This document shows, one piece after another, positions 5,801 to 29,040 of a stretch of DNA of 32,000 nt (the first letter of the stretch is position 1; each line of letters starts with the position of its first letter). Source of the stretch: Cupriavidus necator (GTDB taxonomy: Bacteria > Pseudomonadota > Gammaproteobacteria > Burkholderiales > Burkholderiaceae); NCBI RefSeq assembly GCF_016127575.1, contig NZ_CP066019.1, positions 1,950,001-1,982,000 on the forward strand, read 5' to 3'. Both the position numbers and the translations under genes were made by a program. The notes under the pieces are model-generated. The model was not told where the DNA came from. It did not search any database and was given only the letters and a program-made list of their open reading frames with translations.

Positions 5801-6604
5801 ATGACCACGCACAACCATTCCGGCACCGCCCTCATCACCGGTGCTTCTTCCGGCATCGGCGCCATCTATGCGGAGCGCCTGGCGCGCAGGGGCCACGACC
5901 TGATCCTGGTGGCGCGTAACCGCGCGCGGCTGGAAGCACTGGCCCGCCGGATTACCGACGATACCGGCCGCTCGGTCGAAATCGTGACCGCGGACCTTGG
6001 CCAGGCAGCCGATGTACGACGCATCGAAGAGATCCTGCGCACGGATGCAAGCATCACCACGCTGGTCAACAACGCCGGCTTCGGCGGCGCGGCACCGCTG
6101 CTGCAATCGGATGTCGACACCATGCAGGCAATGATCGAGCTCAACGTCACGGCGCTGACCCGGCTCACCTACGCCGCCGCCCCGGCGTTCGTTGCGCGCG
6201 GCGAGGGCACCATCATCAATATCGCCTCGATCGTGGCGGTCGCGCCCGAGGTCCTGAACGGTGTCTACGGCGCCACCAAGGCGTTTGTGCTGGCCTTTAC
6301 CCAGTCGCTGCAACATGAGCTTGCGGGCAAGGGCGTGCGCATCCAGGCGGTCCTGCCGGGGGCCACCCGCACCGAGTTCTGGGACACCGCCGGCCAGCCG
6401 GTCGAGAACCTGCCGCAATCGATAGTCATGAGCGGCGACGACCTGGTCGACGCGGCCCTGGCAGGGCTGGACCAGGGCGAGGTGATTACCGTGCCGTCGT
6501 TGCCCGACGTGGCCGACTGGAACACGTTCGAGGCGGCACGCGCCGCGCTCGGCCCCAATCTTTCGCGTGACCAGCCCGCTACCCGGTACGGCGTTGCCCG
6601 GTAA
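5801..6604 (+). CDS. SDR-family oxidoreductase
   Basis: MTTHNHSGTALITGASSGIGAIYAERLARRGHDLILVARN, plus NNAG and YGATKAF (YxxxK) motifs. Divergent from the GlxA regulator. Confidence 0.9.
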   Translation: MTTHNHSGTALITGASSGIGAIYAERLARRGHDLILVARNRARLEALARRITDDTGRSVEIVTADLGQAADVRRIEEILRTDASITTLVNNAGFGGAAPLLQSDVDTMQAMIELNVTALTRLTYAAAPAFVARGEGTIINIASIVAVAPEVLNGVYGATKAFVLAFTQSLQHELAGKGVRIQAVLPGATRTEFWDTAGQPVENLPQSIVMSGDDLVDAALAGLDQGEVITVPSLPDVADWNTFEAARAALGPNLSRDQPATRYGVAR

Positions 6605-7240: not shown

Positions 7241-8323
7241 CTATTCCGCTGCGCGCGGCGCAGCCGTGGAACCCCGCACGATCAGCTGCGGCGTCAGTTG
7301 CACGGTGACGGCATCGGAGGCTGGCTTGTCGATCTTCCTGAGCAGGAGACGGGCTGCCTCCTCGCCCATTTCGTGGACGGCAATGCGCACGGTGGTCAGC
7401 GGCGGCGTCAGGGCGTCGGCGAAAGGCATGTCGTTGTGGCCCACCACCGAGACATCCTCGGGGCAACGCATGCCGTGCTCGCGCAGGTAGTCGTAGCAGC
7501 CCATCGCCACCAGGTCATTGCCGGCGGCGATAGCGGTCACCTGCGGAAATGCCGCGAAGAGCTGCTCGCATGCGAGCCGGCCGGCCTCGCGCGAATAGCT
7601 GGCGGCCTCCATGACTTGCCATTCCCCGCGGCGCAGGCGGTGGCGCTTGACCGCCTGAAGAAAGCCCTCGCGACGCAGGAAGCCGGTCGACAGCGTGGCT
7701 GGCCCGGCAATATGCCCGATGCGGCGGTGGCCCAGGCCGACCAGGTGGTCGACCGTCTGCCGCATGGCCAGCAGGTTGTCGCTCACCACGCAGGACACCC
7801 GGCCCGTGTCATCGCCCCGGTTGACCGTGACCACGGGGATATGCTGCTTAAGGCAGTAGGCGAGGATCGGATCGTCCCGTTCCGCGGTGGCAAGCACCAG
7901 TCCTTCGACTTGCCGGCCGATCATCTGGTCGATGACAAAGCGCTGCCGGCTCTTGTCGGTACCGGCATTGACCACGATCGGCACGTAGCCCTGCTGCGCC
8001 AGCACGGATTCGATCCCGGCCAGGATGGGCGGAAACACCGGGTTGGAAATATCGGGCAGCACCACGCCCACCAGTCCGGAACGCTGGGTGCGCAGCCCCG
8101 CCGCGATGCGGTTGGGGCGAAAGCCGCGCGCCTCGGCAACCTCCAGGATGCGGGCCGCCACGTCCTCAGCCACCAGGTGCCGCGTGGCCGGGTTCATCAC
8201 TCGCGAGATGGTCGAGTAATGCACGTCGATCTCGGCAGCCAGGTCTTTCAGGGTGAGGCGCTTGCGCTCAGGCATGACGGCAGTTGGCGGGGCGGCAGCC
8301 CGGGGAGGGTTGGAAACCACCAT
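7241..8323 (-). CDS. LacI-family transcriptional regulator
   Basis: 360-aa ORF with HTH LKDLAAEIDVHYSTISRVMN and a periplasmic-binding-like core. Last gene of the minus-strand cluster. An alternative start at 8275 (MPERKRLTLKDLA) is possible. Confidence 0.85.
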   Translation of the reverse strand: MVVSNPPRAAAPPTAVMPERKRLTLKDLAAEIDVHYSTISRVMNPATRHLVAEDVAARILEVAEARGFRPNRIAAGLRTQRSGLVGVVLPDISNPVFPPILAGIESVLAQQGYVPIVVNAGTDKSRQRFVIDQMIGRQVEGLVLATAERDDPILAYCLKQHIPVVTVNRGDDTGRVSCVVSDNLLAMRQTVDHLVGLGHRRIGHIAGPATLSTGFLRREGFLQAVKRHRLRRGEWQVMEAASYSREAGRLACEQLFAAFPQVTAIAAGNDLVAMGCYDYLREHGMRCPEDVSVVGHNDMPFADALTPPLTTVRIAVHEMGEEAARLLLRKIDKPASDAVTVQLTPQLIVRGSTAAPRAAE

Positions 8324-8367: not shown

Positions 8368-9351
8368 CTACTGCCCCGCTTTCACGCCGGATTGCCTGAC
8401 CACCGGCGCCAGCTTGCCGATCTCCGCCTGGATATAGGCAGCGAACTCCTGCGGCGACGAGCGCTTTGGCTCCGCGCCCTGGGCGGCCAGGCGCTCGCGC
8501 ACATCCGGCGCGGCCAAGGCCTTGCCGATCTCGGCATTGAGCGCATCGACGATTTCCTTCGGGGTGCCGGCGGGCGCCAGCACGCCGAACCAGGAGTCGA
8601 ACGCGTAGCCGGGGAAGCCGGACTCCGCCACCGTGGGAATCTCCGGCAGCGCGCTGGCGCGCCTGGCCGTGGTGACCGCCAGCGCCCGCAGCTTGCCCTG
8701 CCTGACGAACGGCATGGCCGATACGCTGGGCGCAAACATCATGTCGCCCCGGCCAGCCATGACGTCGGTCAGCGCTTCGCCCGTGCCCTTGTACGGGATA
8801 TGGACGATGTCAATGCCGGCCTGCATCTTGAACATCTCGCCGCTCAGGTGGGTGGAGCTGCCCGAACCCGCCGAGTCGAAATTCAGCCCGCCCGGCGTCG
8901 CCTTGGCGGCGTTGACGACGTCCCGCACCGACTTGTACTTGCTGGCGGCATTGACCACCAGCACATTGGGGACCGTGGCCACCAGCGAGACCGGCGCGAA
9001 GTCCTTCACCGTGTCATACGAGAGCTTGGGATACAGCGTGGCGTTGATGGCGTGCCCGACCGAAACCAGGATCAGCGTGTAGCCATCCGGCGCCGCCTTG
9101 GCCACGCCGGTGGCACCCAGGGTGCCGCCGGCGCCGGGGCGGTTGTCCACGATCACCTGGTAAGTGCCGCCCTCGCCCATCTTGCTGCCGATGATGCGCG
9201 CCAGGATGTCGGTGGCGCTGCCGGCCGAGAACGGCACCACCAGCCGGATCGGCTTGCTGGGATATTGCGGTTGCGCGTGGGCGGCGGGTGCGGCCGCCAG
9301 CATGAGCGATGACGCCAGCGCCAGCACGGTGCCTTGGATGGATCGAATCAT
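8368..9351 (-). CDS. Bug-family (TctC-like) tripartite tricarboxylate transporter substrate-binding protein
   Basis: Track ORF 8368..9387, trimmed to MIRSIQGTVLALASSLMLAAAPAAHA (signal peptide) with a GAGGAG SD 7 nt upstream. Bug hallmark YPSKPIRLVVPFSAGSATDILAR present. Confidence 0.9.
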   Translation of the reverse strand: MIRSIQGTVLALASSLMLAAAPAAHAQPQYPSKPIRLVVPFSAGSATDILARIIGSKMGEGGTYQVIVDNRPGAGGTLGATGVAKAAPDGYTLILVSVGHAINATLYPKLSYDTVKDFAPVSLVATVPNVLVVNAASKYKSVRDVVNAAKATPGGLNFDSAGSGSSTHLSGEMFKMQAGIDIVHIPYKGTGEALTDVMAGRGDMMFAPSVSAMPFVRQGKLRALAVTTARRASALPEIPTVAESGFPGYAFDSWFGVLAPAGTPKEIVDALNAEIGKALAAPDVRERLAAQGAEPKRSSPQEFAAYIQAEIGKLAPVVRQSGVKAGQ

Positions 9352-9438: not shown

Positions 9439-10542
9439 TCAGAAGAAGTGCCGCATGCCGAGCGCGACCGTCTGCGGGTCTGAACCCGCGCTCACGCCCA
9501 GTTCATTGATGGCAAAGTCGTAGATCGCATTGCGCTTGTTGTTGATGCGGCTGTAGTACGCATACAGCGCGGTGCGCTTGGACAGCGGATAGTCATAGCC
9601 GACCGTGACCTGCGTGGCACCCGTTTCCGCGCCACTGCGGAAGAAGCCCACGGTCTCGGTCGCATTGCCCGCGCCATTGCTGGCAAGGCCAAAACCGACG
9701 CGCACGCTGCCCGGCCCGAGCTTCTGCACCAGCGACGCGTAGTACCCGTTGCGGGTCAGGTCGCCGGTCGCGGTGCGGTAGTGGAGCCGTTCATAGAGCA
9801 GCGCCACGGTGGTGGTGGGGAACTTGTACGAGACGCCCGCCTTCATCGCATCATCGTTGCGGCCGGCGGTCTGGTAGTGCTGGTGGACTTCATAGGCCAG
9901 CACCACGTTGAGCGGGCCGTTGTCGTAGGCCGCCGAGAACGAATACAACCCGGGATTGCGCGGTACGGTGGTCTTCTCCTCATTCACGCCCCACGCCGCG
10001 GCGCCGCTGAAGCCGGCGAACGACGGCGACTTGTAGACGATGATGTTCTTCTGCCGGCGGTCGAACGAGCTGGTGTCCTGGACGTTGTCGGAGCTGGACG
10101 TGGAGCCGTTGCCGATCAGCGCCATATAGCCGGCGGTGGTCGGATAGTACGGGTCGTAGGCCATTGTCGATTCGGTGTATGGGGTCTGCCAATGCCCCAG
10201 GAACAGCGTGCCGGCATCGCCCTGCAGCCCCACCCGCGTATTGCGCCCGGCCACCTGGCCTTGGCCGGTATCGAGCGAGAAATTGCTTTCGATCTGCCAG
10301 ATGGCTTTCAGGCTGCCGCCCAGGCCTTCTTCGCCGCGCATGCCGAAGACTGAGCGGTTGTTGGTCAGGCGCCCCACGCCGCCAAGGCGGGTGCCGTCGG
10401 TCGCGGTGTTGGCATAGGAATACTCCAGTGCCGTATTGATGCGCCCGTACAGCGTCACGGCCGACTGCGCGCTGGCCTCGCCGCCACAGGCTGCGGCCAT
10501 GGCCAGCATGAGCAGATGGCTGGGCTTTCTGATGGACTTCAT
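9439..10542 (-). CDS. Outer-membrane porin (Gram-negative trimeric porin family)
   Basis: Track ORF 9439..10704, trimmed to MKSIRKPSHLLMLAMAAACGGEASA|QSAVTLYGRIN with a GGGGAGA SD. Alternating beta-strand pattern. C-terminal ...VALGMRHFF is typical of Burkholderiales porins. Confidence 0.9.
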   Translation of the reverse strand: MKSIRKPSHLLMLAMAAACGGEASAQSAVTLYGRINTALEYSYANTATDGTRLGGVGRLTNNRSVFGMRGEEGLGGSLKAIWQIESNFSLDTGQGQVAGRNTRVGLQGDAGTLFLGHWQTPYTESTMAYDPYYPTTAGYMALIGNGSTSSSDNVQDTSSFDRRQKNIIVYKSPSFAGFSGAAAWGVNEEKTTVPRNPGLYSFSAAYDNGPLNVVLAYEVHQHYQTAGRNDDAMKAGVSYKFPTTTVALLYERLHYRTATGDLTRNGYYASLVQKLGPGSVRVGFGLASNGAGNATETVGFFRSGAETGATQVTVGYDYPLSKRTALYAYYSRINNKRNAIYDFAINELGVSAGSDPQTVALGMRHFF

Positions 10543-10597: not shown

Positions 10598-10611
10598 TGC
10601 AATCGTTTGCA
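10598..10611 (-). promoter_or_regulatory. LacI-type operator-like near-palindrome TGCAATCGTTTGCA
   Basis: Lies in the 85-nt cupin-porin spacer, 17 nt after the cupin stop. Differs by one arm position from the perfect palindrome at 14662-14675. Confidence 0.5.
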
Positions 10612-10627: not shown

Positions 10628-10969
10628 TCAGCTCTTGGGATACGGCATCGCCAGCAACAGCATCGCCGGCCGATTGCCCGGGTTGAACACCTGCCGCGCC
10701 TCACCCGGCGCCACGCGCACGGAATCGAACTGGGCCAGCGTCACGCGCTCGTCGGGCGTGGCGATGCAGACTTCGCCTTCCAGCACGACGTAGTGCTTTT
10801 CCACGGGCGCGGCATCCATCGACGTATGGCCGCCCGGCAACAGCACCGAGACCCCCATCCACAAGGCTTCGGACGGTCCCGCTTCATGCCCTTGCAGGCG
10901 CAGGCAGTGCATGCCTTCATGATTGGCCGGAAAGTAGGCCGGCGCCTGCGCGAACCGGGTCGTGTTCAC
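10628..10969 (-). CDS. Cupin-domain protein
   Basis: 113-aa ORF with a GTG start that overlaps the MDR stop (GTGA). The stretch GGHTSMDAAPVEKHYVVLEGEV...VRVAPGEARQVFN fits the cupin_2 two-motif pattern. Confidence 0.8.
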   Translation of the reverse strand: MNTTRFAQAPAYFPANHEGMHCLRLQGHEAGPSEALWMGVSVLLPGGHTSMDAAPVEKHYVVLEGEVCIATPDERVTLAQFDSVRVAPGEARQVFNPGNRPAMLLLAMPYPKS

Positions 10970-11943
10970 GGCTTCAGCACCACGCGTTCGGTCGCGCCTT
11001 GCAGGACCGCCCGGTAGGCCTCCTTGGCGTCGGAGAGCGAATAGGTGTAGTCGGAGAAGACCGGGAACGGCCGCAGCGCACCCGAGGCGAACATCGGTGC
11101 GAGCTGGTCAAGGATGCCCGCGCAGGCGTTGCTGTCCAGCGCAAGGGTGTCGACGCCCACATAGGTGTGCTGGCCACGATAGAAGGCGAAGATGTCAAAC
11201 GGCACCGGCTTCTCAATGGTCGAGATGAAGATCTGCGCCGCGCCGATCGCCATGGCCTGGTTGGCCTGTTCGAAGTAGGGGCTTCCCACCGTGTTGTAGA
11301 CGATGTCCGCACCGTGTCCGTCGGTCTCTTCGCGCACCACCGCGGCAATGGATTCGCTGCTGGCATCGATCATGCGCACGTCGCCGCTGGCATGGCCGCG
11401 ATAGGCTTCCGCGGTGCGCTCCACCGCAAAAACACGCGCGCCGAGCGCGGTGGCGATCTGGATCGTAGCCTGCCCCACCTTGCCATTGCCGCCACACACC
11501 AGCACGGTGCTGCCAGCCTGCGGCATGCCCGCGCGGCGCAGCCCTTCATAGGCGGTAATGAACGGCACCCCCACGGCGCCGGCTTCCAGCAGCGACACCG
11601 ACGCCGGTTTGGCGCGCACGGCGCTGGCCTGGATGCGCAGATACTTGCCATGCGTGCCGTCGCGGCGGATGCCGAGCTCGCCGCCGCTGCCCCAGACCGG
11701 CTGGCCCAGCAGCTCGGAGGGTCCGTCGACCACCAGGCCTGCGTAGTCGCGGCCTGGCGTGCGCGGCCAGACCGCATGCGGCATCAGGCCGAGCGTTGCC
11801 TTCACGTCGCTCGGATTGACCCCGGCACTGGCCACTTCGATGATGACCTGACCCTGCGCCGCTTCCGGGCGCGGCACGCCGAGCAGCTCCAGCTGCAGGG
11901 CGTCGATATTGGCGGCTTTCTCGCTGACTCGAATGGTGTTCAT
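10966..11943 (-). CDS. MDR-superfamily NAD(P)H-dependent oxidoreductase (quinone oxidoreductase/zinc-ADH-like)
   Basis: Track ORF 10966..12306, trimmed to MNTIRVSEKAANIDALQLE with an AGGAAGGAAG SD. Motifs: GVNPSDVK, and the Rossmann motif VLVCGGNGKVGQATIQIA. Confidence 0.9.
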   Translation of the reverse strand: MNTIRVSEKAANIDALQLELLGVPRPEAAQGQVIIEVASAGVNPSDVKATLGLMPHAVWPRTPGRDYAGLVVDGPSELLGQPVWGSGGELGIRRDGTHGKYLRIQASAVRAKPASVSLLEAGAVGVPFITAYEGLRRAGMPQAGSTVLVCGGNGKVGQATIQIATALGARVFAVERTAEAYRGHASGDVRMIDASSESIAAVVREETDGHGADIVYNTVGSPYFEQANQAMAIGAAQIFISTIEKPVPFDIFAFYRGQHTYVGVDTLALDSNACAGILDQLAPMFASGALRPFPVFSDYTYSLSDAKEAYRAVLQGATERVVLKP

Positions 11944-11984
11944 GGTGCTTCCTTCCTGAAATGTTTGGTTCGGTATGGCCGGGA

Positions 11985-12869
11985 TCAGGCCTCGCGCAGG
12001 CCAAGCGTGCGCCGGGCCTCGGCCGACGACGCAATCTCGCCGCCGAGCGACCTGACGATGTCGCGCGCCTTGGCGACCAGCGCCGCGTTGCTTGGCGCCA
12101 GCACGCCCTTCTCCAGATAGATGTTGTCTTCCATGCCGACACGCACGTGTCCGCCTGCAAGCCATGCCTGGGCCACGATCGGGAACTCCGCGCGGCCGAT
12201 GCCGAAGGCCGACCAGTGGGCGCCGGCGGGCAGCATGCTGCGCGCGTAGAAAATGGTTTCCGGCGTGGCCGCAAAGCCGTACTTCACGCCCAGCACCAGG
12301 GTCCACAGGCCGGGGCCGTCCAGCACGCCTTCACGGATGAAGTCGAGCGCCATATTGAGGTCGCCGGAATCGAAGATCTCCAGCTCGGGCATGACACCGG
12401 CCGCGCGGATCACGCCGGCCATCTTGCGCACGTTGGTGGGCGTGTTGATGACCACGTCGCCGCCGGAGTTCATGGTGTTCAGGTCGAGCGAGCAGACGTC
12501 CGGGCGCAGCGCCGCGATGTGTTCGACGCGCTTGGCGGGATGCAGCAGCGTGGTGCCCGGCGCGGCCACGCGCGGCTCGTCCTCGCTCGGCACGAAGCGG
12601 CCACCGGGCCCGGTGGTGAGGTTGATGATCAGCGAGCGGTTGCGTTTGCGGATGCGGTCGATGACATCGGCGTAGTAGTCGAGCGACATCGACGGGCGCC
12701 CCGTTTCGGGGTCGCGCACGTGGATGTGGGCGGCGGCTGCGCCGGCCTCGGCGGCTTCCAGCGCGGCGTCGGCAATCTGGGCCGGCGTGACCGGCAAGCC
12801 GGGGTGCTGCTCCGGGGTGACGATATTACCGGTCACCGCGCAGGTGATGATGGTCTTGCGTGCGTGCAT
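11985..12869 (-). CDS. BKACE-family (3-keto-5-aminohexanoate cleavage enzyme-like, DUF849) beta-keto acid cleavage enzyme
   Basis: 294-aa ORF. MHARKTIITCAVTGNIVTPEQHPGLPVTPAQIADAALEAAEAGAAAAHIHVRDPETG is the characteristic BKACE N-terminus (TIM barrel; HxH zinc site). Confidence 0.9.
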   Translation of the reverse strand: MHARKTIITCAVTGNIVTPEQHPGLPVTPAQIADAALEAAEAGAAAAHIHVRDPETGRPSMSLDYYADVIDRIRKRNRSLIINLTTGPGGRFVPSEDEPRVAAPGTTLLHPAKRVEHIAALRPDVCSLDLNTMNSGGDVVINTPTNVRKMAGVIRAAGVMPELEIFDSGDLNMALDFIREGVLDGPGLWTLVLGVKYGFAATPETIFYARSMLPAGAHWSAFGIGRAEFPIVAQAWLAGGHVRVGMEDNIYLEKGVLAPSNAALVAKARDIVRSLGGEIASSAEARRTLGLREA

Positions 12870-12920
12870 GAGCGAAGGTCAGTGATGGAAATTCGGTTGG
12901 GTAAACAAGCGGGGCCCGGC

Positions 12921-13670
12921 CTATCCAAGCTGGCGGCCGCCGTCCACGACGATGGTGGTGCCGGTGGCAAAGCGCAGCGACGTCGCGCACGCCGCGATGG
13001 CATCGGCCACGTCCTGTGCCTGGCCGACGCGCTTGAGCGGCGTCGACTTGGCGGCGCGCTCGTTGAAGCCGCTGTCGCGTCCCGGCACGAAGGCGGTATC
13101 GACCACGCCCGGTGATACGTTCAGCACGCGGATATGCGGCGCCAGCGCGCGCCCGAGCGACATCGCCATGACATCGAGGCCGGCCTTGGCAGCGCAGTAC
13201 GCAACGTTGCTGCCCTGCCCCGTACGGCCGGCGATGGACCCGACATTGACCACCAGCCCGTCGCCATTGGCGCGCAGGTGCGGCGCGAACGCACGGATCG
13301 CAGCAAACTGCCCGCGCCAGTTGATGGTAAACAGTTCATCGATCAGCGCATCGTCCAGGGCGTCCAGGTCGGCGTGCGGGATCGCCCGCGTAAAGCCTGC
13401 GGTGTTCACCAGGATATCGACGCGGCCGTAGTGATGGCTGACCTCGTCGGCCAGCGCGCGCAGCGAGGCGCTGTCGGCAACCTCGGCCACAGCGGCAAGA
13501 TGGTTGCCGGCCGGCAAGGCCGCCGCGGCACTGGCCGCCTCGTCGGCGTCGCGCCCGGTCAGCACGACGCTTGCGCCAAGGCGCGCCAGCGTTTCACCGG
13601 CGGCAAAGCCGATCGCGCCGGTGCCGCCGAGGATCACGGCCACCTTGCCGGAAAGAAAAGTAGCACTCAT
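12921..13670 (-). CDS. SDR-family oxidoreductase
   Basis: 249-aa ORF with GKVAVILGGTGAIG, NTAG and YCAAKAG (YxxxK) motifs. Confidence 0.9.
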   Translation of the reverse strand: MSATFLSGKVAVILGGTGAIGFAAGETLARLGASVVLTGRDADEAASAAAALPAGNHLAAVAEVADSASLRALADEVSHHYGRVDILVNTAGFTRAIPHADLDALDDALIDELFTINWRGQFAAIRAFAPHLRANGDGLVVNVGSIAGRTGQGSNVAYCAAKAGLDVMAMSLGRALAPHIRVLNVSPGVVDTAFVPGRDSGFNERAAKSTPLKRVGQAQDVADAIAACATSLRFATGTTIVVDGGRQLG

Positions 13671-13712
13671 GGTTTCAATGTGGGAATGGGTCAGGGGAAG
13701 CCGATCCGGCGA

Positions 13713-14648
13713 TCAGTCGATCGGCGGCTTCGGGAAGGTCTGCTCGCCGGGCTCGAGCGTGAAATCGAACGCCAGTGTGTAGAACGGCGCCGGCACATCG
13801 CCCCACGGGCTGGGGCCTTGATGGTGCAGCCGGAGATCGCCAACCAGCTGCCGATGCACGCCGAACGTGACATCGGATTCCAGCTTGTCCGGCGCGTCGG
13901 CAAACACCTGGGTGACGAGCGTCCGGTAACCCGGCGCCGCGACGATGAAATGGATATGCGCCGGCCGGTACGGATGGCGTTGCTGCTCGGCCAGTAGCGT
14001 GCCTACCGGGCCGTGGGTCGGCACGGGATAGCCGGCAGGCCGTACCGTGCGAAAGTGGTAGCCGCCGCTTTCATCGGTATGGAAGCAGCCGCGCAGGTTG
14101 CGGTCGGGCTGGGCCGGATCCTGGTTGTCATACAGTCCCACCGGCGACGCCTGCCAGATCTCGACCAGCGCGCCTGGCAGCGGCGTGCCATCGGTCGCCC
14201 GCACGGTGCCGCTGACCAGCAGCGGCAAGCCAGGCGCGTCGTCCTGCACCACGCAGTCACCGCAGTCATAGCGCGGCGCGTTGGCGCGATAGAACGGGCC
14301 CAGCAGCGCGCCGGGCGTGCGCCCGTCCCTGGTGCTGTTATTCATGACGGTCACCAGCGTCGACAGCCCCAGCACGTCGGCAGCCAGCACAACCTCGTTG
14401 TGTTTGGCATTGGTCGCATGGCCCAGGCTGGCGATATACCCCAGGGCAAGCTCGAATTCCTCGTCGGACAGCCGCACCTCGGACAGGAACCCGTGAAGGT
14501 GCCGCACCAGGGAATCCATGATGAAGCGCAGGCGGGGATTGGCGGTATTGGCCATGGCCGCCTGGACCACGCCTGTCACCGAGTGTTCGTCCTCGATCAG
14601 CGCCAGACGCTCGCCTTGTGGCGCCTGCCGCTCGCTGGAAGTTTCCAT
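13713..14648 (-). CDS. Intradiol ring-cleavage dioxygenase (hydroxyquinol/catechol 1,2-dioxygenase family)
   Basis: Track ORF 13713..14666, trimmed to METSSERQ (AAGGAGG SD 6 nt upstream). N-terminal helical domain (NPRLRFIMDSLVRHLHGFLSEVRLSDEEF). C-terminal domain carries LLGPFY, GLYDNQ, RPAHIHF (Tyr/His iron ligands). Confidence 0.9.
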   Translation of the reverse strand: METSSERQAPQGERLALIEDEHSVTGVVQAAMANTANPRLRFIMDSLVRHLHGFLSEVRLSDEEFELALGYIASLGHATNAKHNEVVLAADVLGLSTLVTVMNNSTRDGRTPGALLGPFYRANAPRYDCGDCVVQDDAPGLPLLVSGTVRATDGTPLPGALVEIWQASPVGLYDNQDPAQPDRNLRGCFHTDESGGYHFRTVRPAGYPVPTHGPVGTLLAEQQRHPYRPAHIHFIVAAPGYRTLVTQVFADAPDKLESDVTFGVHRQLVGDLRLHHQGPSPWGDVPAPFYTLAFDFTLEPGEQTFPKPPID

Positions 14649-14661
14649 GTTTTGCCTCCTT

Positions 14662-14702
14662 TGCAAACGTTTGCATTATCGGCGGTTTCGACGGATGGTC
14701 AA
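14662..14702 (-). promoter_or_regulatory. Sigma70-like promoter (-35 TTGACC, 16 nt, -10 GATAAT) overlapped by perfect LacI-type operator TGCAAACGTTTGCA
   Basis: On the minus strand: TTGACC (14702-14697), 16-nt spacer, GATAAT (14680-14675). The last T of the -10 is the first base of the 14-bp perfect palindrome at 14675-14662. AAGGAGG and ATG 14648 follow immediately. Confidence 0.6.
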
Positions 14703-15062: not shown

Positions 15063-15374
15063 ATGACTACCCACAACATCGCCAAGCGCTTTGTCTTCGC
15101 CATCGCCCTGGTTGCCGCCGCTGCCGGTGCGCAGGCCGCCGCACTGTCCCAGCCGGGCGCGCGAGACCCTTTCACCGACGGTGCCCGCTCCGTGCAAGAG
15201 GCACGCAGCCCGTACAGCGACGGCGCGCGTGCCGTCGACCCGTTCACGGACGGTGCGCGCAACGTCGATCCGTACTACGACGGCGCACGCACCCTGTCCG
15301 GCCTGGACCGCACCGGCGTTTCAGCGGACCCGGCGCGCAGTGTCGACCCCTATCTTGACGGCGCCTACGCCTGA
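15063..15374 (+). CDS. Small secreted tandem-repeat protein, DP[FY]x[DE]GAR repeats (copy 2)
   Basis: Track ORF 14802..15374, trimmed to the ATG at 15063 with an AAGGAAG SD 6 nt upstream. Signal peptide MTTHNIAKRFVFAIALVAAAAGAQA|AALSQPG. Repeats ARDPFTDGARSVQE / ARSPYSDGARAV / DPFTDGARNV / DPYYDGAR ... DPYLDGAYA. Confidence 0.8.
   Translation: MTTHNIAKRFVFAIALVAAAAGAQAAALSQPGARDPFTDGARSVQEARSPYSDGARAVDPFTDGARNVDPYYDGARTLSGLDRTGVSADPARSVDPYLDGAYA
15159..15290 (+). repeat. In-frame tandem repeats encoding the DP[FY]xDGAR units (copy 2)
   Basis: Four successive units of 42, 36, 30 and 24 nt, read directly from the sequence. Confidence 0.7.
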
Positions 15375-15407
15375 ACCCCGACTTTCTGAATAAACAAGGA
15401 GCGCATC

Positions 15408-15827
15408 ATGACCCGTATCGAAAAAGTGCTGTACACCGGCAAAGTCCACATCAGCGCAGGCGGACGCGACGGCGAAGCCCATAGCGATGACGGCCGGCTG
15501 AACCTTCAACTGTCCTCGCCGGGCACCAAAGGCCCGGGCACGAACCCGGAGCAATTGCTCGCCACGGGATGGTCGGCGTGCTTTATCGGCGCGATCGGGC
15601 TGGCCGCCGGCAAGATGAACGTGAAGCTGCCGGCCGAGCTTTCGGTCGACGCCGAGGTTGACCTGGGCATGGCTGGCGAGGCCTATTTGCTGCAGGCCCG
15701 GCTCAATGTCCACATCCCCGGCATCGACCGTGAAGTGGCCCAGGCACTGGTGGATACCGCGCACCGGACCTGCCCATACTCGAAGGCCCTGCACGGCAAC
15801 ATCCACGTCGAGACCAACCTGGTCTGA
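15408..15827 (+). CDS. ohr: Organic hydroperoxide resistance protein Ohr (OsmC/Ohr family)
   Basis: 139-aa ORF with an AAGGAG SD. Starts MTRIEKVLYTGKVHISAGGRDG. Both catalytic Cys contexts are present (GWSACFIGA and HRTCPYSKA). Confidence 0.95.
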   Translation: MTRIEKVLYTGKVHISAGGRDGEAHSDDGRLNLQLSSPGTKGPGTNPEQLLATGWSACFIGAIGLAAGKMNVKLPAELSVDAEVDLGMAGEAYLLQARLNVHIPGIDREVAQALVDTAHRTCPYSKALHGNIHVETNLV

Positions 15828-15837
15828 CACACACCGT

Positions 15838-15865
15838 GACCTGCCTGAGGCCAACCGGGCAGGTC
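15838..15865 (+). terminator. Hairpin between ohr and the downstream membrane-protein gene (possible attenuator)
   Basis: GACCTGCC (15838-15845) pairs with GGCAGGTC (15858-15865) around a 12-nt loop. No clear U-tract. Confidence 0.3.
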
Positions 15866-15886
15866 ATCTTCCGGAAGGAGGCTCCC

Positions 15887-16402
15887 ATGCCGAAGATTGG
15901 CATTTCGGTACAGGCTGCGGCACTGAATATCCCGCCAGGCACGTTCCATGGCATTACCCTGATCGGGGCCGTGGTGGCTGCCGTTACGACTTTCCTGACG
16001 CTCACCGCAGCGCTACCCGCCTGGGCCATGTTCCTTGGCTGGGTCGCATTCAACACAGGCTCGCAGACGGCGCGCGAAGGCGCAGCGAACCTTGCGGCAT
16101 TCCTGCTCGGCATCGTCTTCGGTGCTGCGACCGGACTGCTGATTGGATGGCTGACGCCGCGCTTCGGTGACCTGGCTACACCGCTCGCGGTGTTCGGCGA
16201 CGTGGTACTCGTGCTCAGCCTGCGCGCGCTGCCACGGATCAACAATCCGCTTGCCTATTTCCTTGGCCTGATCAGTTTCTTTGCTGCGAGCCAGCCACCG
16301 TCGCTGATGTTGTTAGGGGCGCTGGCCGCTGCCGGTGTGCTCGGCGCGATCGGCGCCGGTATCAGCAACGTGCTGCAGGCGCGACTGGCGCGCGCAGTTT
16401 GA
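15887..16402 (+). CDS. Inner-membrane protein, DUF1097-like (4-5 TM helices)
   Basis: Track ORF 15836..16402, trimmed to MPKIGISVQAAALNIP with a strong GGAAGGAGG SD. Highly hydrophobic with Gly/Ala-rich helices. The family assignment is from memory of YcdZ-like proteins. Confidence 0.75.
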   Translation: MPKIGISVQAAALNIPPGTFHGITLIGAVVAAVTTFLTLTAALPAWAMFLGWVAFNTGSQTAREGAANLAAFLLGIVFGAATGLLIGWLTPRFGDLATPLAVFGDVVLVLSLRALPRINNPLAYFLGLISFFAASQPPSLMLLGALAAAGVLGAIGAGISNVLQARLARAV

Positions 16403-16480
16403 GCCGGCTTGTCTGCGCCGAGCAGGCAACGCTCAGCCGAGCCGGCGCGGGATCGCCTATCGCTTTCACGCGCGCGCCCC

Positions 16481-16696
16481 TCAGACCACGTTGATCGTGA
16501 CGTCGATGTTGCCCCGCGTGGCCTTGGAATACGGACAGGTCTGATGCGCCTCGTGCGCCAGGGCCTCCGCGGTCTCGCGCTCCACGCCTGGGACGTGCAC
16601 GTTGAGGCGCGCCTGCAGGCAATACGCATCGCCCGCCATGCCGAGGTCGACTTCGGCGTCGATGGCCACGTTCTCTGGCAGTGCAATCTTTATCTT
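16481..16696 (-). pseudogene. Ohr paralogue remnant (C-terminal ~70 codons only)
   Basis: KIKIALPENVAIDAEVDLGMAGDAYCLQARLNVHVPGVERETAEALAHEAHQTCPYSKATRGNIDVTINVV aligns with residues ~69-139 of the intact Ohr at 15408-15827. The N-terminal half, including the first catalytic Cys, is missing. Confidence 0.8.
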
Positions 16697-16987
16697 CCTG
16701 GCTGCCAGGATGCGCGCCGTTTCAACGCGCAGCTGCTCGACTGCACGTGCGGGTGATTGACCGGTGTTCAGCCGGAACTCGCGGCCGAAGTGGCGTGGGC
16801 TCATATGCACGGAATCTGCGAGCCTTTCAACCGAGAGGTCTTCGTGCAGGTGGGTTCGCCGAAGATTCGCAGGAATGCCCGCCGCATGCGTTCGGGTCGG
16901 TGAAGCCCGTCAGGCTGGCGATGCGCTCGACGGTGAGTCGATCTGCGTCTATCAGGGTTTCTTCGCCCCTGCGTGGAACACGACGTT
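16697..16987 (-). pseudogene. AraC/GlxA-family HTH fragments (frameshifted, permuted order)
   Basis: Three reverse frames give RRGEETLIDADRLTVERIASLTGFTDP / ERMRRAFLRIFGEP (HTH-2-like), followed by HLHEDLSVERLADSVHMSPRHFGREFRLNTGQSPARAVEQLRVETARILAA (HTH-1-like). The latter is fused in frame to the Ohr fragment (track ORF 16481..16810). Confidence 0.7.
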
Positions 16988-17884
16988 CTAGCGTTTGCGC
17001 GCGTAGAGACTCGGTGGTTGGCCGACGTGCCGGCTGAACGCGGTGCTGAAGGTAGTTGCCGAGCCGTAGCCGACCCGTTCAGCCACTTCGGCGATCCCGA
17101 TGTCATGGCGACGGAGCAGGTCCTTCGCCACGGCCATGCGCCAGGCGATCAGGTATTCCATCGGTGGCATTCCCACGGCGCGCGTGAAGCGCTCAAAAAA
17201 GGTCGAGCGCGACAGCGCTGCCTTCCTGGCGAGTTGGGCCACCGTCCACGAGCGCGCGGGATCGGCGTGCATCTGCCGCATCGCTGACGCGAGTCGCGTA
17301 TCGGTCAGGCCACGCAGCAGCCCCGGGGGCGCGTCCTCCCCCGAAGTTGAGCGCAGCGCTTCGATCAGCAGCACCTCCACCAGGCGCGTGAGCACGAGCT
17401 CGCGCCCCGACCTCCGTTCACCCGATTCCTCGCTGACGAGCCGCACGATTGCCGAAAGCCGCTCGGCGCCGCGCACATGCACCAGCGCCGGCAGCAGCGA
17501 CACCAGCAACGCAGCATTGGACGAGTCGAAGACGAAGTAGCCGCCGAGCAGTCGCACATCGGGGCGTCCACCGCGCCTGCCGTGACGAACTTCGCCCATC
17601 GGCGCGGGCGTGACTTTGGGGTCGATGCGCTCGGGCGCCACCGGCTCAAAGCCCGACAAGGTGAAGCCCGGCGTTGCCGGCAGGAGCACGAAGTCGCCCG
17701 TCTCAAGCGTGAGGGCATGCTGGCCGTCGACGGCGAGACGACAACTGCCCTCGAGCACGGCGCAGAAGCTTGGCTGGCCGAAGTCAGCGTAGCGAACACC
17801 CCAGCGGCCGGCGCCGCTGATGGACTTCGAGAACACGGCACGCGGCTGAAGCAGCGAGATGACTTCTGACAGGGGATCGCTCAT
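16988..17884 (-). CDS. AraC-family transcriptional regulator (cupin-type N-terminal sensor domain)
   Basis: Track ORF 16988..17920. The likely start is MSDPLSEVISLLQPRAVFSK (17884), typical of this subfamily; the alternative is 17920. C-terminal HTHs: WTVAQLARKAALSRSTFFERFTRAVGMPPMEYL and IAEVAERVGYGSATTFSTAFSRHVGQPPSLY. Confidence 0.85.
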   Translation of the reverse strand: MSDPLSEVISLLQPRAVFSKSISGAGRWGVRYADFGQPSFCAVLEGSCRLAVDGQHALTLETGDFVLLPATPGFTLSGFEPVAPERIDPKVTPAPMGEVRHGRRGGRPDVRLLGGYFVFDSSNAALLVSLLPALVHVRGAERLSAIVRLVSEESGERRSGRELVLTRLVEVLLIEALRSTSGEDAPPGLLRGLTDTRLASAMRQMHADPARSWTVAQLARKAALSRSTFFERFTRAVGMPPMEYLIAWRMAVAKDLLRRHDIGIAEVAERVGYGSATTFSTAFSRHVGQPPSLYARKR

Positions 17885-17982
17885 CGCCGGACGATTGCAA
17901 ATGAAATCTGGACTTTTCATTGTAGGCAGTCCGTCGCATCCCCGCTATCGTTGCCGGCATCCAAACCACCACCGAAACCCTC

Positions 17983-18855: not shown

Positions 18856-19911
18856 ATGCCGCGCCCTGTTATCCGACCTGTGTCCGACCAGAAACCTGCA
18901 GAGAAACTCACCATCCAGGACGTTGCCGACTATGCGGGCGTGTCCAAGGCAACCGTATCGCGCTACCTGAACCGGGGCGGCGAGCAGCTTTCCGCGGACG
19001 TGGAGGCGCGCGTCGCCGCGGCCATCCGCGCGCTCGGCTATAGCCCCAGCCCGATGGCGCAGGGGCTCAAGCGCGGCAAGTCGCGCCTGATCGGCCTGGT
19101 GGTCGCGGATGTCTCCAATTCGTTCTCGGTGGCCGTGCTGCGCGGCGTTGAGAAGGCCTGTCGCGACGCCGGCTACATGGTGATGCTGTTCAACCTCGGC
19201 AATGACGAGCAACTGGAGCGCGAAGCCATTCGCTCGCTGTCGGCTTACCGGGTCGAGGGCTTTATCCTGCACACGCTGGGCCACGATGCCGGCGCCCTGG
19301 CCGATGCGGCGCAGTTGGGCAAGCCAGTGGTCCTGGTCGACCGCAAGGTCGGCGATGCCGAAGTCGACCTGGTGGCCCTGGACAACCAGACCGCCGTCCA
19401 GGAAGCCGCCGGCCACCTGGTCGAAGCCGGCTACCGGCGCCTGCTGTTCATCAGCGAGCCGATCAAGGCCATCAGCTCGCGCAACGAGCGGGCGCGCGCG
19501 TTCCAGGCCTTTGTCGCCGAACACGTGGACACGGTTGGAGGGACCGTTTTTGAAGCCCAGCGGGGTGACGACGATGCCCTGGATGAAGCGCTGCGCGCGC
19601 TGCGCCGTGGCGCCGGACAGGCACCCGTTGCCGTGCTGGCGGCCAACGCCGTGATCTCGCTGCGCGTGGCCGCATCGGCCGCCAGACTAGGGTGGCAGCT
19701 TGGCGCCGACCTGGGCCTGATCGGCTTCGATGATCCGGAATGGGCTGCACTGGTCGGTCCTGGCCTCAGCGCCATTTCCCAGCCCACCGACGATATCGGG
19801 CGCGTTGCCACCAACTGCCTGATAGAGCGCCTGCAAGGCACGCAGCTGCCGCCGCGCCGGGTGCTGTTGCCCGGCACGCTGGTCACGCGCGGATCGACCC
19901 GCCGCGCCTGA
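18856..19911 (+). CDS. ptxS: LacI-family repressor, PtxS-like (2-ketogluconate utilisation regulator)
   Basis: 351-aa ORF with HTH LTIQDVADYAGVSKATVSRYLN. Sits next to a kguE/kguK/kguD-like operon. Three copies of the palindrome I recall as the Pseudomonas PtxS operator (TGAAACCGGTTTCA) flank it. Confidence 0.85.
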   Translation: MPRPVIRPVSDQKPAEKLTIQDVADYAGVSKATVSRYLNRGGEQLSADVEARVAAAIRALGYSPSPMAQGLKRGKSRLIGLVVADVSNSFSVAVLRGVEKACRDAGYMVMLFNLGNDEQLEREAIRSLSAYRVEGFILHTLGHDAGALADAAQLGKPVVLVDRKVGDAEVDLVALDNQTAVQEAAGHLVEAGYRRLLFISEPIKAISSRNERARAFQAFVAEHVDTVGGTVFEAQRGDDDALDEALRALRRGAGQAPVAVLAANAVISLRVAASAARLGWQLGADLGLIGFDDPEWAALVGPGLSAISQPTDDIGRVATNCLIERLQGTQLPPRRVLLPGTLVTRGSTRRA

Positions 19912-19962
19912 TCGCAGAGCCCTTCCCCACCGGCGCCCGCCGTGCCCGCCTGATCCACGCCT

Positions 19963-19990
19963 GCACCCGCTGCGCACGTCCAGCGGGTGC
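19963..19990 (+). terminator. Hairpin downstream of ptxS (candidate terminator)
   Basis: Perfect 10-bp stem GCACCCGCTG / CAGCGGGTGC with an 8-nt loop. The T-run (GTTT) comes only ~12 nt later. Confidence 0.45.
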
Positions 19991-20049
19991 CTGACGTGCC
20001 TGTTTCCACATCCGCCAAACGCAGTTTTTGACCGTAAGGGTTTCCACTG

Positions 20050-20094
20050 TTGGATCTCTGAAACCGGTTTCCTATAATCCTGAAACCGGTTTCA
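20050..20094 (+). promoter_or_regulatory. Promoter (-35 TTGGAT, 17 nt, -10 TATAAT) bracketed by two PtxS-type operators
   Basis: TTGGAT 20050-20055. Operator 1 TGAAACCGGTTTCC at 20059-20072, inside the spacer. TATAAT 20073-20078. Operator 2 is the perfect palindrome TGAAACCGGTTTCA at 20081-20094. Confidence 0.7.
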
Positions 20095-20153
20095 AAACGG
20101 TGCTTGCCCAACGCTGCGACGCCAGCGACACATTCCATAAACGTGCAGGAGAC

Positions 20154-20960
20154 ATGATGAACGTCCAACGCTTGTTGCGCCGCGCAGCCGCGCCCGTGCT
20201 GACTCTGCTGGTCCTGACCAGCGCCGCTTTCACCGCCCAGGCGCAGACCGTCGCCGAGATCGTCAAGAAGGGCAGGGTCACCATCGGCGTGGTGACCGGC
20301 GCCCCGCCCTTCGGCACCACGGACGCCACCGGCAAGCCCGCCGGCTATGACGTCGACGTGGCCAACCTGCTCGGCAAGTACCTGGGCGTGCCGGTCGATA
20401 TCGTTCCGCTCACCTCGCCCAGCCGGATTCCGGCGCTGGAGGCCGGCAAGGTCGATTTCCTGGTCGCCACACTGGCGCCGACGCCCGAGCGGGCGCGGGC
20501 CATCATGTTCAGTGCACCCTACAGCGCGTTCGAGCTGACCATCTTCGCGCCCGTCGCTGCCAAGTACGCCAGGCTGACGGAACTCGGGAAGAAGAAGGTG
20601 GGCGTGACGCGCGGCACCACGCAGGACACCGCGCTGACCCGGCTGGCCGTGCCCGGCATGAACATCGTCCGCTTCGAGGACGATGCCACCTGCGCGCAGG
20701 CGCTGATCAGCAACCAGGTCGAAGCCATTGCCCTGCCCAATACCACCGGCAACGAGATCATGAAGGCGCGCGGTGCCGGCAAGTTCGACGCCAAGTTCGC
20801 GTTCTCGGTGCAGCCCAATTCAATGGCCGTGCGCCGCGACGCCTTCGAGCTGCGCCAGTGGCTCAACACCACCATCTCCTACGTCAAGCTGAATGGCGAA
20901 CTCGACGCCATTGCGCAGAAGTGGACCGGCAAGGCGCTGCCTGCGCTGCAAGCGTTCTGA
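20154..20960 (+). CDS. ABC transporter substrate-binding protein (polar amino acid / SBP_bac_3 type)
   Basis: Track ORF 20028..20960, trimmed to MMNVQRLLRRAAAPVLTLLVLTSAAFTAQA (signal peptide). AGGAG at 20147-20151 favours ATG 20157 or 20154. GYDVDVANLL and FSAPY motifs present. Confidence 0.9.
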   Translation: MMNVQRLLRRAAAPVLTLLVLTSAAFTAQAQTVAEIVKKGRVTIGVVTGAPPFGTTDATGKPAGYDVDVANLLGKYLGVPVDIVPLTSPSRIPALEAGKVDFLVATLAPTPERARAIMFSAPYSAFELTIFAPVAAKYARLTELGKKKVGVTRGTTQDTALTRLAVPGMNIVRFEDDATCAQALISNQVEAIALPNTTGNEIMKARGAGKFDAKFAFSVQPNSMAVRRDAFELRQWLNTTISYVKLNGELDAIAQKWTGKALPALQAF

Positions 20961-21014
20961 ACCAGGCCGTCTGAGGTTGCGCGCCGGCGCCAGCCGGCGT
21001 GCCAGGAGACCCCC

Positions 21015-21773
21015 ATGAACTACCAATTCGAATGGACCCCGGTGCTGTCGCAGCTGGACCGCTTCGCGGAAGGCGCGGCGATGACGCTGGCGCTCAGCTT
21101 CGGCTCGATCCTGCTTGGCACAGTGGTCGGCACCGCCGGCGCGATTGCCGCCGCTTTTGGCGGCCCCTGGCTGCAGCGTGCCACCAGGGCATATGTCGAA
21201 GCCATCCGCAACACGCCCTTCCTGATCCAGCTCTTCATCATCTTCTTCGGCTTGCCAACCGTGGGCCTGCAGATCGATGCCGTCACCGCCGCGGTGATTG
21301 CCATGACCGTCAACCTCGGCGCCTACTCGACGGAAATCATCCGGGCCGGCCTGCAGGCAGTTCACCGCTCGCAACTCGAGGCCGCCGCCGCGCTGGGCAT
21401 GACACGCTGGCAGCTGATCCGCCACGTCGCCCTGGTGCCGGCTTTCGAGAAGGTCTATCCGGCCCTGACCAGCCAGTTCACGCTGATGATGCTGACGTCG
21501 AGCGTGGTGTCGACGATCTCGGTGGAAGAGCTGACGGCGGTCGCCAGCCAGGTCGATTCGCAGACCTTCCGCACCTTCGAGAGCTACATCCTGGTCATGT
21601 TCGTCTATATCGGCCTGGCACTGATGCTGCGCGCCATATTCGGCCTGATCGGCAACCTCGTGTTCAAGCGGCGCCGCGTGGTGGCGCGCGCACGAAAGCT
21701 GGCCCGCACAGCCCGCATCGCGCCAATGGCGCAGGCGGAACTGACGGCAGCGGCTGCAGGGAGCGCGCAATGA
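21015..21773 (+). CDS. ABC transporter permease (amino-acid type)
   Basis: 252-aa ORF with an EAA-like loop (AAAALGMTRWQLIRHVALVPA) and the IRNTPFLIQLF motif. Confidence 0.9.
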   Translation: MNYQFEWTPVLSQLDRFAEGAAMTLALSFGSILLGTVVGTAGAIAAAFGGPWLQRATRAYVEAIRNTPFLIQLFIIFFGLPTVGLQIDAVTAAVIAMTVNLGAYSTEIIRAGLQAVHRSQLEAAAALGMTRWQLIRHVALVPAFEKVYPALTSQFTLMMLTSSVVSTISVEELTAVASQVDSQTFRTFESYILVMFVYIGLALMLRAIFGLIGNLVFKRRRVVARARKLARTARIAPMAQAELTAAAAGSAQ

Positions 21774-28909: not shown

Positions 28910-28944
28910 GGGATCCGCGCCGCGGGCGGCGATTATTAGTTTCC

Positions 28945-28982: not shown

Positions 28983-29040
28983 TCGATTCCCTGCGGTTGC
29001 TAGATTGAAGCCTCGTCGTCGCCTTGGCCCCCTATCGATC

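Follow-up and report, generated by a model that had tools for sequence, protein, structure and literature searches.

A screen of 124 beta-keto acid cleavage enzymes (BKACE, DUF849) by Bastard et al. in 2014 reportedly tied groups G3 and G4 of this family to the end of the beta-ketoadipate pathway. Members of BKACE groups other than the one treated here convert beta-ketoadipate into acetoacetate and succinyl-CoA (PMC4922564), and cleavage of this type has been described for pca clusters without pcaIJF in Methylobacterium (PMC8963497) and for pca clusters of Rhodobacterales (NetSyn supplement), while in Cupriavidus necator H16 a COG3246 gene within the CatM/BenM-regulated catBCD operon has been proposed to cleave beta-ketoadipate (PMC6449761). 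A BKACE-ended lower pathway for aromatic compounds is already known, even in H16. A further member of the family, BsfD, moves the acetyl group of acetyl-CoA to C2 of 3-oxo-4-phosphonobutanoate (10.64898/2026.01.15.699783). Here, we analyze a 32-kb stretch of C. necator H16 chromosome 2 (AM260480.1), called the window throughout, which carries five genes for an intradiol dioxygenase, a short-chain dehydrogenase/reductase (SDR), a BKACE, a medium-chain dehydrogenase/reductase (MDR), and a cupin. In our preferred, still tentative reading, they specify a LacI-repressed lower pathway for a hydroxyquinol-type ring, running from maleylacetate via 3-oxoadipate to acetoacetate and succinyl-CoA by way of the BKACE. 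An earlier note on this DNA had proposed a non-canonical route through 3-oxoadipate, a proposal that our analysis supports in part, whereas the route itself is not new, since BKACE cleavage of beta-ketoadipate had already been published.

The five genes lie on the minus strand in the order dioxygenase, SDR, BKACE, MDR, and cupin, with spacings of 42, 51, and 41 nt between the first four and with the MDR stop overlapping the cupin start in GTGA (sequence gccGTGAac). They encode a 311-aa intradiol dioxygenase (13713-14648; CAJ96581; Pfam PF04444 and PF00775), a 249-aa classical, FabG-like SDR (12921-13670; adh_short/adh_short_C2), a 294-aa BKACE-family enzyme of the BsfD-like subclade (11985-12869; CAJ96579; PF05853), a 325-aa NAD(P)H-dependent MDR of the quinone-oxidoreductase/enoyl-reductase type (10966-11943; CAJ96578; ADH_N and ADH_zinc_N), and a 113-aa minimal single-domain cupin (10628-10969; CAJ96577; Cupin_2). 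Public gene calls on AM260480.1, made independently, agree exactly on all five. Together with the open reading frames (ORFs), these calls bear out in every detail the layout, gaps, and overlap given in the earlier note, and Pfam returns all the gene families that it had named. GC content at third codon positions (GC3) is of coding type in all five ORFs (0.82-0.89); since the 5' extension of a longer MDR ORF has a GC3 of 0.53, which is not coding-type, the 325-aa start is taken as correct. The 32-kb window contains no gene for an iron-containing alcohol dehydrogenase (Fe-ADH) of the maleylacetate reductase type, for PcaIJ, or for PcaF. The absence of these classical partners, also pointed out in the earlier note, is real at this scale but need not extend to the genome, the close relative C. 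necator NH9 having pcaIJF on chromosome 2 (PMC6379261).

To follow the unit across species, one genome per species was scanned, yielding 80 loci that encode close relatives of the BKACE, distributed among Cupriavidus, Pandoraea, Paraburkholderia, Trinickia, Variovorax, and Undibacterium. All five genes occur in the same order and on the same strand within 5.5 kb in 72 of these loci, and a search seeded with the cupin recovered the full set of five also in Polaromonas sp. JS666, Noviherbaspirillum denitrificans, and a Caulobacteraceae metagenome-assembled genome (MAG). Because the same order recurs in 72 of 80 loci of other species, the arrangement is not due to chance, and the five genes are a real conserved operon; gene-neighborhood conservation across Burkholderiales, singled out beforehand as a point on which the proposal might fall, is what the scan found. 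The BKACE is the most conserved member, with 74-80% identity between genera compared with 53-59% for the dioxygenase. In five Paraburkholderia loci, the MDR gene is cleanly deleted, and those for the dioxygenase, SDR, BKACE, and cupin are kept.

A common regulatory element accompanies the operon. Upstream of the dioxygenase gene, a putative sigma-70-like promoter on the minus strand (TTGACC-16 nt-GATAAT, 14675-14702), recognized by consensus match only (10 of 12 positions), is abutted at its -10 box by a perfect 14-bp LacI-type palindrome, operator O1 (TGCAAACGTTTGCA, 14662-14675), located 27 nt upstream of the dioxygenase ATG. A second site, O2 (TGCAATCGTTTGCA, 10598-10611), has one mismatch to O1 and lies between the cupin stop and the start of a porin gene; with up to two mismatches allowed, the window holds just these 2 sites against 0.11 expected by chance. 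Behind O2, a second minus-strand transcription unit begins with this porin (Porin_4, 9439-10542), followed by a TctC/Bug periplasmic carboxylate-binding protein (8368-9351) and a LacI-family regulator (7241-8323; an alternative start at 8275 gives 344 aa). In line with its family, the regulator combines an N-terminal helix-turn-helix (HTH) domain with a periplasmic-binding-protein fold (Pfam LacI HTH and Peripla_BP), and the operator at the promoter is a palindrome with a central CG. Among related loci, the palindrome directly precedes the dioxygenase gene with few exceptions and in every genus, an O2-like site occupies the same relative position in most Cupriavidus loci, and a LacI homolog (at least 40% identity) adjoins the cluster in 72 of the 80, with a TctC/Bug gene beside it in Cupriavidus and Variovorax (59/80 loci) and also in Polaromonas. 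Since they share a conserved operator and an adjacent LacI homolog, the enzyme operon and the porin-TctC-lacI unit most likely constitute, as judged from sequence, one regulon under the LacI repressor, and the tie between the transport and regulatory genes and the enzymes asserted in the earlier note is thus provided by the operator. The LacI protein would bind TGCAAwCGwTTGCA operators that overlap the enzyme-operon promoter and precede the porin-TctC-lacI unit, and an effector would presumably release it.

Elsewhere, the operator marks additional genes. In two Paraburkholderia, it accompanies a PcaK-like aromatic-acid/H+ symporter (AAHS) of the major facilitator superfamily (MFS), a porin, RidA, and an NMT1-like protein, and in another Paraburkholderia group it occupies the intergenic region before an RbsB-like ATP-binding cassette (ABC) system, while in Noviherbaspirillum it precedes an Fe-ADH gene that immediately adjoins the five-gene set on its upstream side. 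In C. basilensis OR16, it stands at the porins of a second, rearranged paralogous cluster (contig003; L029/L088), which is also present in C. yeoncheonensis (L037). This second cluster contains several copies of the same operator motif and comprises LacI, SDR, BKACE, MDR, cupin, LacI, RidA, NMT1-like protein, dioxygenase, hexapeptide protein, and porins; its BKACE is 91% identical to that of the window and its dioxygenase 55%. Undibacterium arcticum seems to carry a second copy of the promoter/operator segment of the dioxygenase gene, 3.8 kb further upstream (L064, 2310-2430 versus about 6100-6190); some 1.2 kb of low-coding DNA separates this copy from scoAB, a layout that suggests a past rearrangement or insertion. 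ScoAB was not counted as a regulon member there, the operator lying 1.2 kb upstream in this seemingly duplicated promoter fragment followed by non-coding DNA.

The first gene of the operon encodes a protein that, by its sequence, is a member of the hydroxyquinol 1,2-dioxygenase clade. It carries the helical Dioxygenase_N domain (PF04444, 81 bits) and the catalytic Dioxygenase_C domain (PF00775, 150 bits), and its highest scores in the PDB are to the hydroxyquinol 1,2-dioxygenase 1TMX (212 bits, 41% identity), PnpC (199), and 6-chlorohydroxyquinol dioxygenase (198). Five hydroxyquinol-type structures score 186-212 bits, as against at most 134 for catechol 1,2-, 116 for chlorocatechol, and 50 for protocatechuate enzymes, and the scores to the NCBIfam catechol and chlorocatechol equivalogs are far under all cut-offs. 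On the choice between hydroxyquinol and catechol clades, which the earlier note had set as a check, the PDB bit scores place the protein clearly closer to the hydroxyquinol enzymes. The Fe(III) ligands Y164, Y197, H221, and H223 of 1TMX, together with Arg218, align with identical residues (HMMER alignment, with positions counted by hand). Among the residues that we take to form the 1TMX substrate pocket (L80, D83, V107, F108, G109, P110, F111, I199, P200, R218, and V251), L80, D83, G109, P110, F111, P200, and R218 are identical, while V107L, F108L, I199V, and V251T differ. From this clade membership, a hydroxyquinol-like substrate and a maleylacetate-type product can reasonably be expected; as four pocket positions differ, a substituted triol is also possible as substrate. 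One public source names the H16 dioxygenase a “protocatechuate 3,4-dioxygenase beta subunit”.

The BKACE contains a full PF05853 domain (334.7 bits, profile positions 1-274). Its closest characterized relative is BsfD (PDB 9ZSC), with 367.6 bits and 57% identity in a gapless alignment over residues 2-292, so that the question of its subfamily is answered by a BsfD-like subclade. The Zn ligands H48, H50, and E247 as well as R91 and F166 are invariant in 85 orthologous BKACE copies. In BsfD, Arg91 is carried on a loop insertion of about 20 residues and contacts the phosphonate (10.64898/2026.01.15.699783), and the presence of this residue therefore speaks for a substrate that bears an anionic group at its far end, such as 3-oxoadipate, maleylacetate, or 3-oxoglutarate. 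The public name of the window enzyme, “3-keto-5-aminohexanoate cleavage protein,” is a family-level transfer: the protein scores 253.5 bits against the NCBIfam Kce equivalog (cut-off 382), no lysine-fermentation genes were found near it in the window, and its score against the 3,5-dioxohexanoate enzyme equivalog is 207 bits (cut-off 430). Some orthologs (P0065, P0066, P0089, P0110) are publicly named “NADPH:quinone reductase”, a label that looks like it slipped from the neighboring MDR gene. Public annotation of this BKACE is therefore misleading.

Several related genomes place a classical maleylacetate reductase beside the five genes. In Noviherbaspirillum, a 50%-identical Fe-ADH of the maleylacetate-reductase family is found behind the same operator, directly upstream of the cluster, and since this enzyme is in the same regulon there, 3-oxoadipate is a plausible intermediate. 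Undibacterium has a clear maleylacetate reductase 3 kb downstream of the cluster (429 bits to 3JZD and 339 to GraC, 3W5S), and next to five Cupriavidus clusters there are homologs with 57-61% identity. None of these seven loci has lost the MDR, which is of the zinc-free quinone-oxidoreductase/enoyl-reductase type and not of the Fe-ADH maleylacetate-reductase family. Its best NCBIfam match is the PIG3 family (113 bits, under the cut-off of 296.8), further matches include acrylyl-CoA reductase families, none of which reaches its cut-off, and its PDB matches are 3GAZ, polyketide synthase (PKS) enoyl-reductase domains, and zeta-crystallin-type quinone reductases. The earlier note had assigned to the MDR the reduction of the maleylacetate C=C bond, a chemically reasonable step. 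This assignment is weakened, and a role as replacement of maleylacetate reductase is doubtful, because the true enzyme stands alongside the MDR in seven loci and five Paraburkholderia loci have lost the MDR gene.

The SDR and the cupin are more difficult to place. The translated SDR has a GGTGAIG glycine motif followed by VVLTGRD, and Ser/YxxxK catalytic residues. Motifs of the VVLTGRD type go with NADPH-dependent reduction, and the enzyme is suggested by its motifs to be of the NADP(H) type. It falls short of every NCBIfam equivalog, and its best PDB matches are FabG-type reductases at about 114 bits. In the cupin, H17 is the only invariant histidine, the motif-1 His varying among H, Y, R, G, and S and the motif-2 position being an invariant Arg. 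A Dke1-type beta-diketone dioxygenase or other metalloenzyme was rejected as its identity since the canonical His ligands are not conserved. No sequence match to the cupin was found in the PDB, and its AF2 model (pLDDT 92.9) is nearest to the folds of TM1459 and RemF, also DddK, generic small cupins that are uninformative on function. It also gives a full-length match of 108 bits to an NCBIfam “beta-D-galactosidase” equivalog (cut-off 175), named after a Mycobacterium tuberculosis protein, an odd label for a 113-aa cupin without metal ligands. The mycobacterial gene behind this model presumably lies near an SDR and a DUF849 gene.

Around this core, gene content varies. A gene for a hexapeptide protein resembling gamma-carbonic anhydrase, PaaY, and CaiE is inserted between BKACE and MDR and overlaps the BKACE stop in 18 of 88 loci (for example, L045 8879-9424, L086 10879-11418, and L091 7470-8030), its carriers being Pandoraea, Paraburkholderia, Trinickia, Undibacterium, and the second Cupriavidus copy. 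It has the same position in Noviherbaspirillum, stands at the cluster end in Polaromonas, and is missing in H16 and Variovorax. Three Paraburkholderia have an acetoacetate-decarboxylase-family gene, a second, 260-aa SDR, and a patatin gene after the cupin; this SDR is a putative 3-hydroxybutyrate dehydrogenase, going by context only. Undibacterium carries the 3-oxoacid CoA-transferase subunits ScoAB upstream of the cluster. These acetoacetate-related neighbors modestly favor acetoacetate as a product. Transporters under or beside the operator include the carboxylate types TctC, PcaK-like AAHS MFS, and DctA, and peripheral genes among the genomes encode amidohydrolases, an ABM monooxygenase, RidA, and a pyridoxal phosphate (PLP) enzyme. 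Given this variation, different genomes are suggested to feed different precursors into the common core. A sugar or cyclitol substrate, considered because of LacI and the RbsB-like ABC system in some Paraburkholderia, is disfavored, as most of the co-regulated transporters are of carboxylate or aromatic-acid types. In Polaromonas sp. JS666 (L089, 1-13023), the five core genes sit inside a run of 17 same-strand genes that also holds YciI, two Peripla_BP_6 proteins, RidA, an ABM monooxygenase, a LIV-type ABC system, an NMT1-like protein, TctC, and a hexapeptide protein; these flanking genes may provide peripheral steps that make the ring-cleavage substrate there.

In the pathway that we prefer, a 1,2,4-trihydroxy-substituted ring, which probably enters as an imported carboxylate, aromatic or other, or is made from one, would be opened by the intradiol dioxygenase to 3-hydroxy-cis,cis-muconate/maleylacetate, the ring substrate being deduced from the family placement of the enzyme. 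The C=C bond would then be reduced to give 3-oxoadipate, either by the MDR or, where present, by the classical Fe-ADH maleylacetate reductase, and the BKACE, by analogy with other subgroups, would condense acetyl-CoA on the beta-keto acid and cleave it to acetoacetate and succinyl-CoA. PcaIJ and PcaF would thereby become unnecessary for this route.

A number of observations weigh against this reading. Concerning the BKACE, the score against NF053568, the 3-oxoadipate:acetyl-CoA acetyltransferase model whose exemplar comes from C. necator H16, is 174.6 bits with a cut-off of 350, and no NCBIfam equivalog cut-off is reached at all. Because the exemplar is from H16 and the window BKACE fails the model, another H16 paralog would serve 3-oxoadipate cleavage. 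The position of Kce Tyr145 (PdKce Tyr173), a residue implicated in catalysis that is also Tyr in Kce (2Y7D), 3LOT, and 3E02, is Phe166 in the window BKACE, in BsfD, and in 3C6C. Moreover, BsfD proceeds without a retro-Claisen step, its adduct decarboxylating to 2,4-dioxopentylphosphonate (10.64898/2026.01.15.699783). The earlier claim that the BKACE cleaves 3-oxoadipate is accordingly left divided, with the invariant Arg91 fitting a dicarboxylic beta-keto acid on one side and the failure at NF053568 and a nearest homolog that does not cleave on the other. Concerning the rest of the operon, the MDR is missing from the five Paraburkholderia loci, and the scheme leaves the SDR and the cupin without a role in spite of conservation equal to that of the remaining genes, a gap that the pathway as first drawn already had. 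The acetoacetate-utilization neighbors are not behind the operator, the Undibacterium region looks rearranged, and the transport genes differ greatly from genome to genome, an RbsB-like sugar-type ABC system and a LIV-type one being among them. Literature searches returned no paper on this cluster and no experiment on any of its members. As for Phe166, published active-site logos give “...WFEF...” and “...SFYEF...” for active G3/G4 proteins and “...FFEY...” for a G1 protein (NetSyn supplement). If the residue after Glu in these logos is the Tyr145 position, a mapping inferred by us, Phe is probably compatible with normal cleavage.

Among the alternatives, the one that survives best, though unlikely, leaves the C=C step to a maleylacetate reductase encoded elsewhere and makes the MDR a (hydroxy)benzoquinone reductase, which would keep an autoxidizable triol or tetrol reduced or convert an imported anionic hydroxyquinone. 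The matches of the MDR to quinone-oxidoreductase families are in keeping with this role, as is its distribution, since being dispensable in some genomes and standing beside maleylacetate reductase in others is what would be expected of an accessory reductase. In an oxidized variant, dihydroxybenzoquinone would be converted to tetrahydroxybenzene, followed by ring cleavage, ketoreduction by the SDR, for which the NADPH-type VVLTGRD motif speaks under the general cofactor rule, and BKACE cleavage to acetoacetate and malyl-CoA; this variant is pure chemical reasoning. Against the alternative as a whole, H16, to our knowledge, lacks the NH9 plasmid that carries maleylacetate reductase, so that H16 may need the MDR for the C=C step; in C. 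necator itself, the MDR may thus have this function. In strain NH9, maleylacetate reductase is reported on the plasmid only, next to the chromosomal pcaIJF (PMC6379261).

Since the window BKACE shares the features of BsfD, BsfD-like chemistry is a live alternative, albeit an improbable one. The BKACE homologs form one clade with BsfD and may share its acetyl transfer and decarboxylation. The enzyme would C-acetylate the ring-cleavage beta-keto acid and release CoASH, and the adduct would decarboxylate to a 1,3-diketone of the succinylacetone/maleylacetone type, for example 4,6-dioxoheptanoate from 3-oxoadipate or maleylacetone from maleylacetate, which the SDR, MDR, and cupin would then process. 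The nearest characterized homolog performs exactly this chemistry, and owing to the gapless alignment the loop of about 20 residues after beta3, Arg91, and Phe166 are common to both, with Arg91 and Phe166 invariant in the 85 orthologs; Phe166 in place of the usual Tyr and the missing capping helices are the features stressed for BsfD by its authors (10.64898/2026.01.15.699783). Both reductases would gain a use, and the gamma-carbonic-anhydrase-like gene that is fused to the BKACE stop in 18 loci of other genomes would relate to the released CO2. However, it would be strange for a catabolic operon to gain two carbons and end in a toxic-type diketone, and neither a diketone hydrolase nor a metal-dependent diketone dioxygenase is present, the cupin being devoid of metal ligands. 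The authors of the BsfD study could not show Phe166 to be the cause of the altered chemistry (10.64898/2026.01.15.699783), and Phe is probably also found in the active groups G3 and G4, subject to the inferred mapping of the logos. Nearby acetoacetate-utilization genes and maleylacetate reductase fit the canonical reaction better.

Direct action of the BKACE on maleylacetate, yielding acetoacetate and maleyl-CoA whose enoyl-thioester the MDR would reduce to succinyl-CoA, likewise has only a small chance of being correct. The acrylyl-CoA reductase families and PKS enoyl-reductase domains among the NCBIfam and PDB neighbors of the MDR agree with such a step, and so do the matches of the hexapeptide protein to PaaY and CaiE, both tied to CoA-ester pathways, the protein serving in this case as a thioesterase safety valve in those other genomes. 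It would also explain why the MDR stands beside the BKACE even where maleylacetate reductase exists. Nevertheless, the best match of the MDR is of the PIG3 quinone-oxidoreductase type with no match reaching its cut-off, five loci have deleted the MDR and kept the BKACE, and a maleylacetate reductase in the same regulon would be pointless. Maleyl-CoA is, besides, a chemically unstable thioester. That the five genes are mere neighbors with unrelated functions is hardly credible, since beyond the absent experimental data nothing favors it, whereas the order is kept in at least nine genera including an alphaproteobacterial MAG, with tight spacing or overlap and a common conserved operator.

The remainder of the window holds other genes. 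Upstream of the operon (15063-17920) lie a 103-aa ORF without Pfam match, OsmC, DUF1097, an AraC/OsmC fragment, and a Cupin_6/AraC regulator; the 122-aa HTH_AraC/OsmC call among them joins a short AraC-type fragment to an OsmC-like piece and has the appearance of a gene remnant. The plus strand (18856-24867) holds a second LacI-family regulator gene and, behind it, genes for an SBP_bac_3 binding protein, two permeases, an ABC ATPase, a xylose-isomerase-like TIM-barrel protein, and a PfkB kinase, a cluster that looks like uptake and phosphorylation of an amino-sugar or an Amadori/opine-like compound and is unrelated to the five-gene operon. Further on come another TctC gene (25893-26855), a LysR regulator gene (28007-28909) on the minus strand, oriented divergently from that for an FMN-dependent alpha-hydroxy-acid dehydrogenase (29005-30342), and, after the latter, an ORF of the RraA-like aldolase/decarboxylase family (region 28007-31019).

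If the pathway that we prefer is correct, soil Burkholderiales and at least some Caulobacterales would finish the hydroxyquinol pathway without PcaIJ/PcaF and under a dedicated repressor. Hydroxyquinol pathways handle aromatics derived from lignin, flavonoids, and pollutants, and metabolic reconstructions of H16, a major biotechnology chassis, would be affected. If BsfD-like chemistry takes place in the operon instead, it would amount to an entirely new means of getting rid of an aromatic ring and would reveal from where, in evolution, flavophos biosynthesis obtained its key enzyme. The operon is in this sense a natural test bed for the question, raised in 2026, of cleavage by BKACE versus decarboxylation by BsfD of the acetylated DUF849 intermediate, its catabolic orthologs sharing every residue so far blamed for the BsfD outcome. 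What is new here is the link to a hydroxyquinol-type dioxygenase, the LacI operator, and membership in the BsfD subclade, none of which is described in the literature searched; the NetSyn supplement, too, describes no cluster with this gene content.

Compared with the hydroxyquinol pathway, which consists of hydroxyquinol 1,2-dioxygenase, Fe-ADH maleylacetate reductase, and PcaIJ/PcaF, the window has a dioxygenase of the same clade, and maleylacetate reductase is found in the regulon or neighborhood of seven related genomes, whereas the H16 operon and the window are without maleylacetate reductase, PcaIJ, and PcaF and have the SDR, BKACE, MDR, and cupin under LacI-type control. The BKACE-ended beta-ketoadipate pathway (NF053568; catBCD of H16) shares the proposed reaction, which replaces PcaIJF. 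In contrast to the NF053568-type enzyme, however, the window BKACE is a different paralog with a longer loop after beta3 that carries Arg91, the dioxygenase is of the hydroxyquinol type and not a protocatechuate or catechol enzyme, the partners are the SDR, MDR, and cupin, and cycloisomerase and lactonase genes are lacking from the window operon. Oxidative deoxyribonate catabolism and anaerobic phloroglucinol degradation also have an SDR beside an acetoacetate-releasing BKACE, as in the window, while lacking a ring-cleavage dioxygenase; the window SDR has an NADP(H)-type motif. A closer analogy with the phloroglucinol pathway (SDR, cyclase, dehydrogenase, and BKACE) was rejected, there being no cyclase-family gene here and no cupin mentioned in the phloroglucinol paper. 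With BsfD of flavophos biosynthesis in Burkholderia, the window BKACE shares the Zn ligands, Phe166, Arg91, Arg226, Tyr251, and Lys254, and the substrate of each is presumably a 3-oxo acid carrying an anionic group at its far end. Yet BsfD belongs to a phosphonate cluster with PepM, whereas the window BKACE is part of a catabolic operon whose annotated neighborhoods, as far as examined, contain no PepM, Pmm synthase, or PsfC.

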